From a virus, in UHGV virus genome UHGV-0225651: 14,145 nucleotides of DNA; one strand, given 5' to 3'. Below are positions 2,151 through 13,916 of the stretch, in pieces. Position numbers and translations under genes: made by a program. The notes under the pieces are model-generated. The model did no database searches. It saw only the letters and a list, made by a program, of their open reading frames with translations, and had not been told where the DNA came from. Position 1 is the first letter of the stretch, and every line of letters starts with the position of its first letter.

Positions 2151-2684
2151 CTATAATTGTAGGTTGCATTCTTTACTTACCTCTTCAAGTTTAACCTCAG
2201 AATCCTTAAGTCGTTTCTTATGAACTCTGAACCTCATTAGTGAGATGATGATACCAGCTAAAGGAACAACATACAAGTACCAGACATCATGCAACTTTGC
2301 AGTAATCTGTGTAATGGTCAAGTCTTGAGCTATGTAGCTGATTGCTGATACAGCTAGTAATGTTGCTAAGAAGAAAACCAGTATCATAACAATATTCAGA
2401 CAACCTCTGGCATGGTATTCATGCTTAATGCACTTATTCTTCTCTTCAACAACCCTGTTGTAGTCATTTGTAAAGTCTCTGTAGAAAGCTTTTAAGTATT
2501 CTTGAGTGTAGCCTTCAAAGCAACCTGTACCGTACCAATAATCACCACCAAAATGTGCTATGATACCAGTATCCCCATTTGGTTTGGTTACTCTTAGTGA
2601 AGTATGATGACCAGTCTTCTGATAATCTATCTTGTATCTTTCTTCGTAAATCATTTCCCAACCCCTCTCAATCGTTTGTTCCAC
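2151..2684 (-). CDS. Hypothetical membrane protein (soluble N-terminal domain plus one hydrophobic segment)
   Basis: Hydrophobic stretch LNIVMILVFFLATLLAVSAISYIA in the translated ORF. The listed start overlaps the upstream ORF by 34 nt; an alternative start at MIYEERYK (near 2654) would give an ATGA-type junction. Confidence 0.55.
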   Translation of the reverse strand: MEQTIERGWEMIYEERYKIDYQKTGHHTSLRVTKPNGDTGIIAHFGGDYWYGTGCFEGYTQEYLKAFYRDFTNDYNRVVEEKNKCIKHEYHARGCLNIVMILVFFLATLLAVSAISYIAQDLTITQITAKLHDVWYLYVVPLAGIIISLMRFRVHKKRLKDSEVKLEEVSKECNLQL

Positions 2685-5490: not shown

Positions 5491-5523
5491 CTTAGAAAAT
5501 AAAAAAGGCTCCCGAAGGAGCCT
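5491..5523 (-). terminator. Rho-independent terminator (or attenuator) downstream of the endolysin gene
   Basis: Perfect 7-bp stem AGGCTCC/GGAGCCT (5506-5512 and 5517-5523) with CGAA loop; on the minus strand it is followed by TTTTTTATTTT and then the RBS of the next gene. Confidence 0.65.
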
Positions 5524-5532
5524 ATGAAGATA

Positions 5533-5997
5533 TTACTTTGGATATACACTGTCAAGATAAATGTTAGCTTCCATTCTACGTCTGTTTTTCAGTCCGTTTG
5601 AAGTAACCTTCTCACCTTTGACTGTAATCTTGTTCCACCACTGCATAGCTTCTGCACAACCTACCTTATTACCAGCATTGTGGCGCTTGATAAATGTAGA
5701 GTCCTGCATAGCTGTGATACCGATGTTGTATGTTTCACTTACAAGTGCGTCGAACTCATTCTGAGAAGTGGGAACCTTGATAGCTTTGTTCACTGCTGCA
5801 ACAAACTTTTCAACATCTGTGAGAAGATACTGTTCAGCTTGTGCAGCCGTGATTTTCATACCCATCTTAACAGGTTTTCCGTCAATACGGATTGTACCAT
5901 ACCCGATTGTTGGGATTCCGGCAGAATCTTTGTAAGCCTCAAGCTTAAGACCTTCAAAGAACTTAATAGCTTCTAAACCTTTTCTTGAGAGTTGCAT
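5533..5997 (-). CDS. Endolysin, GH24 phage lysozyme (P22 gp19-like muramidase)
   Basis: The translation has the hallmark N-terminal block EGLKLEAYKDSAGIPTIGYG and resembles P22 gp19 along its length as I recall that sequence (blocks such as ITA-E, NQNxFDAL, YNIG and a C-terminal RRR patch). Start ATG overlaps the stop of the upstream gene (ATGA). Confidence 0.9.
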   Translation of the reverse strand: MQLSRKGLEAIKFFEGLKLEAYKDSAGIPTIGYGTIRIDGKPVKMGMKITAAQAEQYLLTDVEKFVAAVNKAIKVPTSQNEFDALVSETYNIGITAMQDSTFIKRHNAGNKVGCAEAMQWWNKITVKGEKVTSNGLKNRRRMEANIYLDSVYPK

Positions 5998-7130
5998 TAT
6001 GCCTCCCCTGCTGGGTTAACTGTAACTGTTGCTGCATTAGATGTTACAGAGCCACCTGCACCAGTAACTACACAAGTGTAGCTTCCTGCATCAGCAGTGG
6101 TTGCACCTTCTTTGGTGTAAGTTGCAGCAGTTGCATCGAGGATGTCTTCCTCACCTTTCTTCCACTGGTAACCTGTTGCACCTGTTGCCACAACATTCAG
6201 TGTTAAAGTCTCACCTTCAGTGATTTCTTGATTGGTTGGCTGTTGAGTGATTACCGGAAGTGCGTTAACAATAACCGTTGCAGGGCTAGAAGTGACAGAA
6301 CCACCTGCACCTGTTACAACGCAAGCGTATGAACCTGCATCTGCTGGCAGAGCACCAGACTTGCTATAGGTAGCATTTGTCGCTGAAGGAATGTCAGAGC
6401 CATCTTTCTTCCATTGGTAACCGGTTGCACCAGTTGCAGTAACTGCTAAGTTGATGTTTCCACCTTCATTAATAGTCTGGTTAGAAGGTTGCTTGGTAAT
6501 CACAGGTAGTGCGTTCACAGTCACTGTTGCTGCATCTGAGGTAACACTTGTTCCACCCTCTCCAGATACAACACAAGTGTATGAACCAGCGTCAGAAGGT
6601 GCTACTGACTGTTTTGTGTAAGTTGCAGAATTGGCACTAGGGATATCCTCACCATCCTTCTTCCACTGATATCCAGTGGCGTTAGTTGCTAGAATGCTTA
6701 GAGTAAGTGTGCCACCTTCATTTACTGTTTGATTGGTTGGTTGCTGAGTGATTGCTGGTGGCTTGATAGCATCCTTCAACTTAGCATTCAGCATTGAGAA
6801 TGGTTTAACTCTTGCCAGCCATTCACAATAAACTGTATCAACGTCTTTACCATTGATAATTGCATATTGTAAGTCCATGAAGAAATCAGCAGTTCTCATC
6901 TGTGCACCAACACTGTAAAGCAATTCATCACTAAATGGAACTTTGTAGTCTGGTTTGTAGTCAAACTTCTCAACTTCTGCAATATCAGCTTCAGGCCAAT
7001 ATGAACTATAGGTAAGTGGTAAAATAGCCTCTTGATATGTTCTAAAATCATATCTCTTACCAGCCTTTACATTTGCAATGAAACCCTTCACAAACTCTTT
7101 GAAGTCTGGGTAAGTCTTTGCTTTAATCAT
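5997..7130 (-). CDS. Two-part protein: N-terminal domain (about 125 aa) paralogous to the upstream gene, plus three tandem Ig-like repeats
   Basis: Three repeats of about 84 aa (roughly 6000-6755) of the form QQPTNQT-NEGG-L-L-ATGATGYQWKKDG-DIPSA-ATY-DAGSY-CVV-G-GG-VTS-ATVTVNALPVI, an Ig-like signature. The N-terminal region aligns with the 7127..7498 product. Confidence 0.8.
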   Translation of the reverse strand: MIKAKTYPDFKEFVKGFIANVKAGKRYDFRTYQEAILPLTYSSYWPEADIAEVEKFDYKPDYKVPFSDELLYSVGAQMRTADFFMDLQYAIINGKDVDTVYCEWLARVKPFSMLNAKLKDAIKPPAITQQPTNQTVNEGGTLTLSILATNATGYQWKKDGEDIPSANSATYTKQSVAPSDAGSYTCVVSGEGGTSVTSDAATVTVNALPVITKQPSNQTINEGGNINLAVTATGATGYQWKKDGSDIPSATNATYSKSGALPADAGSYACVVTGAGGSVTSSPATVIVNALPVITQQPTNQEITEGETLTLNVVATGATGYQWKKGEEDILDATAATYTKEGATTADAGSYTCVVTGAGGSVTSNAATVTVNPAGEA

Positions 7131-7498
7131 TTCTTTTCAGCCTCTAAATGTGCGTTTAGTCTAAAATAACCTTTGTGATTCGGAGATACATCACCAACGA
7201 CAATACCTTTAACCTTATAACCTTTACCAATTACATACTGGATATCCATAAGGAATCTTCCAAGACCAACAATATGGAACATTGGGTATAATAGATTCTC
7301 AGAGTCTGGAATATTGATTTCAGGTTTGTAGGTACGCTGTTCGATTGTTGGTGTAATATCTTCTTCAGGCCATTTACTGAGTCTCCATGTCAAAGGTGTT
7401 GGGATAACATCATTAAGGTTGTACCTTTCACCATTTTGCACGGAATTGATATAGGATTGTAGGAAGCAATAAAAGTCTTTTGCACTCTTAGCTTTCAT
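7127..7498 (-). CDS. Hypothetical protein (123 aa), stand-alone paralogue of the N-terminal domain of the Ig-repeat protein
   Basis: Shared blocks with the downstream protein: MKAKSAKDFYCFLQSYINSVQNGERYN vs MIKAKTYPDFKEFVKGFIANVKAGKRYD, WPEEDI vs WPEADI, FLMDIQYVI vs FFMDLQYAI. AAGGA RBS upstream; ATGA overlap with the downstream gene. Confidence 0.65.
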   Translation of the reverse strand: MKAKSAKDFYCFLQSYINSVQNGERYNLNDVIPTPLTWRLSKWPEEDITPTIEQRTYKPEINIPDSENLLYPMFHIVGLGRFLMDIQYVIGKGYKVKGIVVGDVSPNHKGYFRLNAHLEAEKK

Positions 7499-7521
7499 TA
7501 AATATCCTTATAAATAGTTAA

Positions 7522-7537
7522 AGGGGCATAAGCCCCT
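7522..7537 (-). terminator. Intergenic hairpin, possibly a weak terminator or processing site
   Basis: Stem AGGGGC/GCCCCT with ATAA loop between the 7546..8136 and 7127..7498 genes; followed on the minus strand by a T-rich but interrupted tract (TTAACTATTTAT). Confidence 0.35.
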
Positions 7538-7545
7538 ATTCACAC

Positions 7546-8136
7546 TTAAGCTTTGGTCTTAAGTAGGTTCTTAAGTTTTTTAAGATTCATACTCTCATCA
7601 AACTTAAAACCAAATCCATTGACATAATCAATGAACTCGGATTTCTTACTGAGTGACAATGCGTAACTCATATCAAAGTTCTTACTTGTTTCTGCATCTG
7701 GACTAGAGTTCACATCAAATGAAATTTCCGTAGGCTCTTGCTTACTTTTTCTCATATTATCAACCAACAAACATGTATAGTTTGCTGGATAGAAATTTAC
7801 ACTACCATCAACGTAGCTGTACTTATTATTATGGATAAGGTTGGAAAATACCTTAAGGAATGTTTCTGAGTCGTGGCAAACAAGTTTGAATTGGCTGCTC
7901 TCTCCAAGCGCAACTAATGAATACGGACTTTCACTATCAAAGTCATAATTTGGATTAGATGCCGTCACTGTTACACGCATCAAGTTATTAGCAATAGTCT
8001 TCTGTTTAAAAGAATTTTGAACATAGTGAAGACCTCTATCACACTGATTGACTAGCTCTTTAAGAAGGTCATTTGCATATGGTGAATTAATTGATACAGA
8101 GCCATCACTATTGTAATTAAAACTTACTGTTAACAT
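7546..8136 (-). CDS. Hypothetical protein (196 aa)
   Basis: ORF on the operon strand with GGAGA RBS about 8 nt upstream of the ATG. Confidence 0.6.
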   Translation of the reverse strand: MLTVSFNYNSDGSVSINSPYANDLLKELVNQCDRGLHYVQNSFKQKTIANNLMRVTVTASNPNYDFDSESPYSLVALGESSQFKLVCHDSETFLKVFSNLIHNNKYSYVDGSVNFYPANYTCLLVDNMRKSKQEPTEISFDVNSSPDAETSKNFDMSYALSLSKKSEFIDYVNGFGFKFDESMNLKKLKNLLKTKA

Positions 8137-13681: not shown

Positions 13682-13756
13682 ACTCGCTTAGTTTATATGG
13701 TAAAGCATCACCCTTACAAGATGAAGAAAAAGGTTCAAGTCCTTTAGCGAGCACCA
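13682..13756 (+). tRNA. tRNA-Val (anticodon TAC)
   Basis: Acceptor ACTCGCT/AGCGAGC (A1/C72 unpaired); anticodon loop CTTACAA flanked by stem TCACC/GATGA (one mismatch); T-arm AAAGG-TTCAAGT-CCTTT; CCA encoded. Confidence 0.7.
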
Positions 13757-13757
13757 T

Positions 13758-13835
13758 GTTCCAGTATCCCAATTGGCAGAGGATGCAAGCTCAAACCTTG
13801 TACTAGTGACGGTTCGAATCCGTCTTGGAACACCA
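13758..13835 (+). tRNA. tRNA with anticodon CAA (Leu-type) but short variable arm
   Basis: Acceptor GTTCCAG/TTGGAAC; D-stem ATCC/GGAT; anticodon stem GCAAG/CTTGT with loop CTCAAAC; T-arm GACGG-TTCGAAT-CCGTC; CCA encoded. Confidence 0.65.
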
Positions 13836-13840
13836 ATTTT

Positions 13841-13916
13841 GCAGGATTAGTTCAAATGGATAGAGCAACAGTCTACGAAGCTGTTAATAGGGGTTCGAAT
13901 CCCTTATCCTGCGCCA
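13841..13916 (+). tRNA. tRNA-Arg (anticodon ACG)
   Basis: Acceptor GCAGGAT/ATCCTGC; D-stem GTTC/GAGC; anticodon loop CTACGAA; T-loop GGTTCGAATCC; CCA encoded. Confidence 0.85.

Follow-up and report, generated by a model that had tools for sequence, protein, structure and literature searches.

A Hoc-like capsid decoration gene and a standalone paralogue of its capsid-binding domain next to the endolysin gene of a Felix O1-like phage

Described hexamer-centre decoration proteins

The closest described systems are the Hex-Dec proteins of Escherichia phage JohannRWettstein (Bas63; bas63_0124, PDB 9NCF chain S) and of the Mooglevirus Shigella phage Sf14 (gp20, 372 aa; PDB 9C2D and 9C3A, chain S), which sit as monomers at the centres of the pentamer-proximal hexamers of a T=9 capsid (PMC12609058, PMC11821841). 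In Sf14 gp20, which binds these hexamers only, the N-terminal 118 aa form the capsid-binding domain (CapBD), whose residues R79 and R107 are anchored to Asp221 of the major capsid protein (PMC11821841), and three Ig-like domains follow. The orthologue of Felix O1, gp36, was identified in virions by mass spectrometry with 44% coverage (PMC3185647), and, according to the Bas63 paper, over 10 kb lie between the Bas63 gene and the structural module. The virion presence of Hex-Dec, its one to four Ig copies and its location outside the structural module have thereby been published already, as has the observation that Bas63 g124 is dispensable on three laboratory strains.

T4 Hoc resembles Hex-Dec in being a non-essential monomer at the hexamer centre that combines a small capsid-binding domain with a string of Ig domains forming an acidic fibre. 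The order of the domains is reversed, however, with the capsid-binding domain at the C-terminus in Hoc and at the N-terminus in the protein described here, and the Bas63 paper reports that the two capsid-binding domains are topologically distinct with minimal sequence similarity. Judged by this domain, Hoc is an analogue of Hex-Dec and not a member of its family. T5 pb10 carries one Ig-like domain, and no sequence relationship to the CapBD was detected. To our knowledge, no CapBD-only paralogue of Hoc has been described. An exhaustive CapBD profile search returned 12 clusters only, in Ounavirinae-like contexts wherever these were examined. A distant homologue (about 36% identity) is gp38 of the Kolesnikvirus Erwinia phages phiEa104 and phiEa21-4, which is encoded directly upstream of the endolysin but carries a single bacterial Big_2-type Ig-like domain, not an I-set domain, and has no CapBD-only paralogue upstream.

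A three-gene cassette around Hex-Dec

The window analysed, a 14,145-nucleotide stretch of the virus genome UHGV-0225651, was assigned to Felixounavirus (Felix O1-like) and shows 95-97.5% identity to many isolates. The following features were located on its minus strand.

5506..5523, minus strand: intrinsic terminator, AGGCTCCTTCGGGAGCCT then TTTTTATTTT; called in the scan, annotated terminator in wV8
5533..5997, minus strand: endolysin, 154 aa; GH24 Phage_lysozyme (Pfam PF00959, E 7.6e-41), phrog_7 endolysin
5997..7130, minus strand: Hex-Dec, 377 aa; N-terminal CapBD and three Ig-like domains
6009..6257, minus strand: Ig-like domain 3, aa 292-374; Pfam and repeat alignment
6258..6506, minus strand: Ig-like domain 2, aa 209-291; Pfam and repeat alignment
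6507..6758, minus strand: Ig-like domain 1, aa 125-208; Pfam Ig_3, Ig_2 and I-set
6762..7130, minus strand: CapBD of Hex-Dec, aa 1-123, with Arg79 and Arg107; ungapped alignment
7127..7498, minus strand: CapBD-only paralogue, 123 aa; phrog_4463, 'unknown function'
7509..7537, minus strand: intrinsic-terminator-like hairpin, AGGGGCTTATGCCCCT then TTTAACTATTTAT; just upstream of the Shine-Dalgarno sequence of the paralogue

Overall, the locus is best explained (probability roughly 0.85) as a late-expressed cassette in a myophage of the Felix O1 type, which would comprise three genes with intrinsic terminators at both ends, a known decoration protein and an old duplicate of its CapBD. The gene order (paralogue, Hex-Dec, endolysin) was invariant in 33 loci from Felixounavirus, Mooglevirus, Suspvirus and one 87-kb metagenomic relative, and the Bas63 gene has the same neighbours, the paralogue 0125 upstream and the endolysin 0123 downstream. 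The hairpin at 7509..7537 forms the upstream edge of the cassette; it was not called by a simple terminator scan because of its imperfect T-run, and its counterpart is an annotated terminator in wV8 and is listed in Table 2 of Felix O1. The terminator downstream of the endolysin gene forms the other edge. Between the upstream terminator and the start of the paralogue, no promoter was called in a sigma-70 scan, and a conserved late-promoter-like motif upstream of the paralogue, CTATTTATAAGG, was rejected as its four matches in the window with up to two mismatches (1.8 expected) were not significant. In Felix O1, RT-PCR placed the maximum of ORF36 and ORF37 at 60 min and the lysin ORF35 at 25 min; this timing is crude, and one simple transcript for all three genes would hardly explain an endolysin that is expressed earlier than both of its upstream neighbours.

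The genes of the cassette overlap. The stop codon of the paralogue and the start codon of Hex-Dec share an ATGA at 7127-7130, while the Hex-Dec stop and the endolysin start have one base in common at 5997 (TAATG). The overlap of the Ig gene with the endolysin gene had thus been recognised correctly in the original prediction, but the ATGA it placed there belongs to the junction of the paralogue and Hex-Dec. Both overlaps are conserved, and each gene additionally has its own Shine-Dalgarno sequence; the sequence suggests that the genes may be translationally coupled. We also considered whether a programmed -1 frameshift at the ATGA might join the paralogue and Hex-Dec into one product and rejected this, as the sequence GCT GAA AAG AAA TGA contains no canonical slippery heptamer, and we found no evidence for such a fusion product.

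We confirmed that the 377-aa protein is the Hoc-like, hexamer-centre capsid decoration protein Hex-Dec. The protein matched both cryo-EM chains over its full length by phmmer (Bas63 9NCF_S, E 6.5e-292; Sf14 gp20 9C2D_S, E 1.4e-167), and the CapBD aligned with both without gaps over residues 1-102 and further. Its identity was 95-98% to Bas63 Hex-Dec and 84-99% to other Ounavirinae, including approximately 85-89% to Sf14 gp20, which comes from another genus and whose Ig domains are more diverged, although it has the same domain composition. R79 and R107 were kept with the same numbering as in the solved relatives. PHROG profiles named 'Hoc-like head decoration' also matched (E 2.5e-40), with matches confined to the Ig region (aa 121-290). 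The suggestion of a decoration protein in an unusual place was therefore right, as shown by the cryo-EM chain matches, the Felix O1 virion mass spectrometry and the distance of more than 10 kb from the structural module, and both the identity and the odd placement are already known; the undescribed part of the locus is the CapBD-only paralogue.

Based on the 95-98% identical relatives, Hex-Dec is expected to be physically present on the capsid of this phage. Its N-terminal CapBD of about 120 aa would act as a monomeric plug that fills the 60 pentamer-proximal hexamers at their centres, while Arg79 and Arg107 would be salt-bridged to an Asp in the major capsid protein, both of which have been shown in close relatives. 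The three I-set Ig-like domains are acidic (predicted pI 4.2). Judging from T4 Hoc, they would extend outwards and form a flexible fibre, which probably serves to attach the phage weakly to surfaces, mucus or host cells. The annotation as 'tail protein' or 'major tail protein' is found in most GenBank records and in phrog_3995, and we give it practically no chance of being correct: the Bas63 authors call it wrong, the density lies in the centres of capsid hexamers, and 9NCF and 9C2D have already refuted it. Most GenBank records thus mislabel a structurally solved capsid decoration protein.

The Ig-like region consists of three repeats of 83-84 aa (Pfam Ig_3, E 3.9e-32 over three stretches), in agreement with the original prediction of three repeats of about 84 aa. 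They had also been described as near-identical and recently duplicated, which did not hold. The repeats share 68.7% identity in protein and 68-69% in DNA (26 +/- 5% in a shuffled control), and Tandem Repeats Finder reported no period of about 250 nt. As orthologous genes of different isolates are approximately 95% identical, repeats that are only about 69% identical argue for an old internal duplication. The copy number ranged from one to four among the 33 loci, which reproduces the published range and answers the proposed check on copy number among relatives. Compared to Bas63, whose Ig domains are of the same type, the window protein has three instead of four and lacks one internal repeat: its third domain corresponds best to the fourth and last domain of Bas63, and a second phmmer stretch aligned residues 204-375 with residues 287-458 of 9ncf_S.

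Proximity to the endolysin gene

The neighbouring gene encodes an endolysin, as predicted (Phage_lysozyme, E 7.6e-41), which raised the question of whether the Ig-repeat protein and its paralogue might assist in lysis by binding to the cell wall or to polysaccharide, with joint expression of the endolysin serving this end. The shared TAATG, the conserved adjacency, the possibility that Ig-like domains bind glycans and the reduced fitness of Bas63 g124 knockouts on strain S17-1 would all be compatible with such a role. However, cryo-EM of two relatives shows the protein on capsid hexamers and mass spectrometry has identified it in virions, it is a separate open reading frame with its own Shine-Dalgarno sequence, and its RT-PCR timing in Felix O1 differs from that of the lysin. 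Furthermore, neither Pfam nor NCBIfam detected in Hex-Dec any domain recognised to bind peptidoglycan or the cell wall (LysM, SH3, PG_binding and similar). The adjacency to the endolysin gene is conserved synteny across the Ounavirinae, and in Kolesnikvirus and in one further relative (L036) approximately 50 nt separate the decoration gene from the endolysin gene without overlap, so that tight coupling to the endolysin is not a family feature. We consider a lysis accessory very unlikely; the position of Hex-Dec beside the endolysin gene reflects conserved synteny and shared late expression. The S17-1 phenotype of the g124 insertions could instead be a polar effect on the downstream endolysin gene. 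With three overlapping genes, an insertion that disrupts the decoration gene may be polar on the endolysin, and the Bas63 phenotype should be read accordingly.

In T4, inh lies beside hoc, and for this reason an Inh-like head protein was considered upstream of the cassette. The idea was dropped: the 185-aa upstream neighbour in L036 had been marked as a 'faint' match to Pfam Phage_Inh_N, which was not reproduced in a Pfam scan with E up to 10, and the homologous 196-aa neighbour in the window gave no Phage_Inh_N match at this threshold either. NCBIfam was uninformative for the latter.

A CapBD-only paralogue without the anchor arginines

The paralogy claimed for the 7127..7498 product and the N-terminus of Hex-Dec was supported and extends over approximately the first 100-120 aa. 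The two sequences were 37% identical over 101 aa (BLASTP, E 2e-17), their PHROG profiles cross-matched (3e-15 and 4e-16), and residues 2-117 of the paralogue matched both solved Hex-Dec chains by phmmer (9ncf_S, E 6e-12; 9c2d_S, E 2e-11). The paralogue comprises the whole CapBD fold, and the end of its open reading frame coincides with the beginning of the Ig linker in Hex-Dec; no Ig-like domain and no Pfam match were found, and NCBIfam was uninformative. An AlphaFold2 model based on an 18-sequence alignment that included Hex-Dec CapBD sequences had a pLDDT of 79.7 and TM scores of 0.77-0.79 to 9c2d_S and 0.74-0.75 to 9ncf_S, with no other PDB fold match at E<=0.001; it replaced an earlier, unusable model from 12 sequences (pLDDT 58). 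Counterparts are Felix O1 ORF37, wV8 gp42, VpaE1 ORF40c, bas63_0125 and, in Sf14, the open reading frame at 10506-10868 of MF327003. The paralogue retains the CapBD motifs WPE.DI, LLY, F.MD.QY and LNA.L, whereas the position of R79 is Gly in every paralogue and that of R107 is N, Q or H, with Arg only in the most distant member (P0055). It is also more basic (pI 8.6 vs 6.3).

The paralogues form a separate clade, including the member from the relative L033, and are joined to Hex-Dec by an overlapping stop and start codon in all lineages, down to 44% identity. They evolve two to four times faster than the CapBD of Hex-Dec but are under purifying selection (dN/dS 0.03-0.29 vs 0.02-0.16). The paralogue would go back to an old duplication in tandem of the module that binds the capsid; it has kept the fold but has no Ig domains. 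In vB_CECAV_041, Z31 and L023 it is a pseudogene that has lost its start codon and carries a deletion of approximately 180 nt and a frameshift. Loss by recombination between the homologous 5' ends of the two genes was considered and rejected, as these lineages keep a decayed remnant with an internal deletion and not a clean fusion.

The paralogue is probably not abundant in the virion. The Felix O1 counterpart gp37 is not among the virion proteins listed with at least 25% coverage (PMC3185647), and judging from the text of the VpaE1 paper, ORF40c is not among the virion proteins of that phage either. Seven good tryptic peptides would be expected from the paralogue, and peptides predicted for its Sf14 and Bas63 counterparts include YNLNDVIPTPLTWR, WPEEDITPTIEQR and FLMDIQYVIGK. 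This bears on the idea that the paralogue is a second, Ig-less decoration protein that occupies the 20 true-threefold hexamers left free by Hex-Dec through contacts other than R79 and R107, and that has been missed so far. Its predicted fold is that of the solved CapBD, and it is a late gene immediately upstream of Hex-Dec, with overlapping stop and start codons. In addition, the Sf14 paper ascribes the exclusion of Hex-Dec from the true-threefold hexamers to shifted positions of Asp221, so that these sites could accommodate a paralogue anchored by other residues, and icosahedral averaging of both capsid maps would weaken or smear the density of a monomer on the threefold axis. On the other hand, the Bas63 authors report no density on other hexamers, a 4.5 A asymmetric reconstruction is also available for Sf14, and the paralogue is not in the two proteomes despite its suitable peptides, although smaller proteins such as the 9.7-kDa gp23 were detected. 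Moreover, one lineage is viable with only a pseudogene in its place. We regard a second decoration protein of this kind as improbable.

Due to the loss of the anchor arginines, the paralogue may no longer bind capsids at all. An alternative explanation is that its present function has nothing to do with the capsid, a host- or defence-interacting protein being one example, and that only the fold is left of its origin. The family-wide replacement of the first arginine, that of the second everywhere except in the most distant member, the pI shift, the faster evolution and the absence from virion proteomes would agree with this. However, its position beside Hex-Dec and the stop/start overlap have been kept in all lineages, many CapBD motifs are retained, and the main text on Bas63 PhageMaP does not mention the paralogue among counters or triggers. 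A capsid-unrelated function is a possible but somewhat doubtful explanation. Most likely, the paralogue would be a late protein that the phage can do without and that is either non-structural or sub-stoichiometric, but that continues to interact with capsid hexamers or Hex-Dec during head assembly. No description of the paralogue was found in the literature searched.

A more specific proposal is that the paralogue is a functional, Ig-less hexamer binder whose synthesis shortly precedes that of Hex-Dec. It could be a placeholder or competitor, determining the sites and density of the Ig fibres, or else a cryptic second decoration protein. Masking of the 20 true-threefold hexamers or of procapsid hexamers would be an example of the former, and the latter would sit on these hexamers. 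We put this forward tentatively and consider it rather unlikely; if true, it would represent a capsid-surface patterning system of two paralogues, which is undescribed for Hoc-like proteins. The paralogue is a standalone capsid-binding module that is under purifying selection and yet has not been seen in virions. If it binds hexamers, it would provide a simple natural example of how a phage controls the placement or density of its surface fibres, which would be relevant to scaffolds for phage display and vaccines in which Hoc- or pb10-like anchors are employed.

Hex-Dec and its gene cassette

The main feature of the locus, the 377-aa protein Hex-Dec, is already known and structurally solved. 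Over its full length, it matches 9NCF chain S (Bas63 "Immunoglobulin-like domain protein", E 6.5e-292) and 9C2D/9C3A chain S (Shigella phage Sf14 gp20, E 1.4e-167), two cryo-EM entries that bear out the suggestion of an unusually placed decoration protein, as already published (PMC12609058). The Bas63 paper, which gave Hex-Dec its name, reported that the gene lies >10 kb outside the structural module in Bas63, that "tail protein" is a wrong annotation in most genomes, and that Felixounavirus species carry one to four Ig-like domains per Hex-Dec (PMC12609058). In Sf14, the capsid-binding domain (CapBD) comprises the N-terminal 118 residues of gp20, salt bridges link Arg79 and Arg107 to Asp221 on three of six capsid subunits, and gp20 was seen by mass spectrometry in particles (PMC11821841); both arginines are found at identical positions in the window's Hex-Dec. 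The two-Ig orthologue Felix O1 gp36 is present in CsCl-purified virions (44% coverage; PMC3185647). The checks proposed in the original prediction (virion proteomics, structure and repeat copy number) had already been done by others. By the mechanism shown for these close relatives, Hex-Dec would act as a capsid plug bearing an Ig fibre, which by analogy with T4 Hoc may serve in adhesion. In a genome-wide knockout screen of Bas63, g124 was dispensable on three laboratory strains and more important on S17-1 (preprint 10.1101/2024.10.10.617714).

A 3-kb stretch around the gene pair is matched by 251 phage records, all Felix O1-like myophages (Ounavirinae, Felixounavirus; e.g. SeKF_63, Andreotti, wV8 and Felix O1), with at least 80% of the stretch covered in 216 of them at mostly 90-97.5% identity. 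The layout is as follows.

Features around the Hex-Dec cassette (paralogue, Hex-Dec, endolysin)
7546..8136 (-), 196-aa gene; orthologue wV8 gp43
7522-7537, intrinsic terminator at the upstream edge of the cassette; annotated in wV8 and Felix O1
7127..7498 (-), 123-aa paralogue; orthologues wV8 gp42, Felix O1 ORF37, bas63_0125
5997..7130 (-), 377-aa Hex-Dec; orthologues wV8 gp41, Felix O1 ORF36, bas63_0124; Ig-like domains at aa 125-208, 209-291 and 292-374
5533..5997 (-), 154-aa endolysin; orthologues wV8 gp40, Felix O1 ORF35, bas63_0123
5506-5523, intrinsic terminator at the downstream edge of the cassette

The paralogy of the two ORFs was confirmed by BLASTP (37% identity across 101 residues, E 2e-17), by reciprocal PHROG profile matches (~1e-15) and by recovery of the solved Hex-Dec chains with the 123-aa protein (E 6e-12). 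The three Ig-like stretches were likewise recovered (Pfam Ig_3, E 3.9e-32; also Ig_2 and I-set). However, the repeats do not stem from a recent event as first supposed: at 68.7% protein and 68-69% DNA identity (shuffled controls 26 +/- 5%), the duplication is real but old. Tandem Repeats Finder did not detect the repeats at the DNA level.

Adjacency to the endolysin

The endolysin is a GH24 Phage_lysozyme (Pfam, E 7.6e-41). The predicted overlap of its start with the Hex-Dec stop holds for one common base (TAATG, 5995-5999), but the ATGA assigned to it sits at 7127-7130, where it joins the paralogue stop and the Hex-Dec start. Every gene of the cassette also has a Shine-Dalgarno sequence of its own. 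In all 33 loci compared, which cover Felixounavirus, Mooglevirus, Suspvirus and a distant 87-kb metagenomic relative, the paralogue is followed by Hex-Dec and then by the endolysin; the adjacency is conserved synteny. In two more distant relatives, the CapBD gene lies ~50 nt from a lysozyme gene without overlap, the CapBD being followed by a Big_2 domain in Erwinia phage phiEa104 and by a Lys-rich tail in metagenomic locus L036.

The proposed role as a lysis accessory binding cell wall or polysaccharide was rejected: domain searches detected no cell-wall-binding domain in Hex-Dec, the adjacency reflects synteny, and expression is later than that of the lysin in Felix O1, where RT-PCR placed the peak of ORF36 and ORF37 at 60 min with late morphogenesis genes and lysin ORF35 at 25 min. 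Overall, the original prediction was largely correct in observation and half right in interpretation.

Distant family members carry other C-terminal modules, namely a Lys-rich low-complexity tail in P0059 (L036 4001..4462) and, in Kolesnikvirus gp38 (L035 2501..3115), an Ig domain of the Big_2 type; the CapBD has therefore been joined to several display domains.

Other genes in the window

For the Bas63 endolysin orthologue, g123, a candidate role in triggering the Ec67 retron defence has been reported; the gene was also described as 'more non-essential' with several defence systems present. Such findings are unexpected for an endolysin. No holin is annotated beside the endolysin in these phages, which makes a 177-aa ORF at 2151..2684 (-) a possible lysis or membrane candidate; it has a GTG start (167 aa from ATG annotated in relatives) and two hydrophobic segments, and corresponds by synteny to bas63_0116, which is membrane-protein-like and conditionally important on S17-1. 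The 196-aa neighbour (phrog_4034, unknown function) keeps its position even in L036 (26% identity, E 8e-20), and a precomputed 'faint' Phage_Inh_N flag on that L036 homologue failed to reproduce on rescan.

A 471-aa DUF2828/DUF7788 protein at 9209..10624 (+), the bas63_0130 counterpart by synteny, is immediately followed by 18 clustered tRNA genes (10790..13916 (+); ARAGORN). The PhageMaP preprint describes bas63_0130 as Ro60-like and as countering 'ppl' defence, and suggests that some neighbouring 'tRNAs' could be Y-RNA-like. Within the cluster, 12511..12589 (+), a weak Rfam tRNA-model match (31.7 bits, barely over the gathering score) not called by ARAGORN, may represent a tRNA-like element that is degenerate or atypical.

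The paralogue of the capsid-binding domain

The paralogue is the only undescribed part of the locus: we found no mention of it in the Bas63 or Sf14 structural papers (PMC12609058, PMC11821841), and PHROGs labels it as of unknown function. It covers the entire CapBD and ends exactly at the CapBD/Ig linker. Its AlphaFold2 model (pLDDT 79.7, pTM 0.79), built with no templates from an alignment that included CapBD sequences, matched no PDB entries at E<=0.001 other than the two solved CapBDs, 9c2d_S (TM 0.77-0.79) and 9ncf_S (TM 0.74-0.75). The family is small: searching 1.8 billion representative proteins with a profile returned only 12 clusters. The paralogues, including a copy in distant locus L033 (44-48% identical), form their own clade and the CapBDs of the same genomes a separate one, indicating one old duplication. 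No copy was found in the Kolesnikvirus record examined (phiEa104).

The paralogue is a real gene under purifying selection (dN/dS 0.03-0.29, versus 0.02-0.16 for the Hex-Dec CapBD), its protein evolving about twice as fast (between-genus identity 73-77% versus 84-93%). The Arg79 position is Gly in every paralogue, the Arg107 position is Asn, Gln or His, with Arg in the most distant member only, and the pI is 8.6, compared to 6.3 for CapBD. In vB_CECAV_041, Z31 and an IMG/VR locus (L023), the paralogue is a pseudogene with common lesions (the ATG reads ATA, ~180 nt are deleted internally and the frame is shifted), and Hex-Dec has a single Ig domain. Given this lineage and the ~19 of 253 phage records without an intact copy (tblastn), the paralogue is dispensable in nature. 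The Z31 Hex-Dec is annotated as two CDSs of 134 and 55 aa (L003 2498..3070), which could reflect either a break in its one Ig domain too or a sequencing error in the record.

The paralogue is absent from the Felix O1 virion protein list (PMC3185647), and seven tryptic peptides of suitable size are expected from it. In VpaE1, its counterpart ORF40c is annotated only as hypothetical, and by the text on that phage the detected proteins, gp54/58/68 excepted, all have counterparts detected in Felix O1. An alternative explanation, that the paralogue decorates the 20 true-threefold hexamers that Hex-Dec leaves free, draws on the icosahedral averaging of the capsid maps, but is disfavoured because the virion proteomes are negative for it and the Bas63 authors state that other hexamers show no density (PMC12609058). 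On these data, the likelier reading is a late protein that keeps the CapBD fold and is non-structural or present in very few copies; it may yet contact capsid hexamers, acting as a placeholder, a competitor or an aid to assembly, or may have switched to a different target. The residual novelty of the locus is a small, conserved, uncharacterised paralogue of a capsid-binding module.
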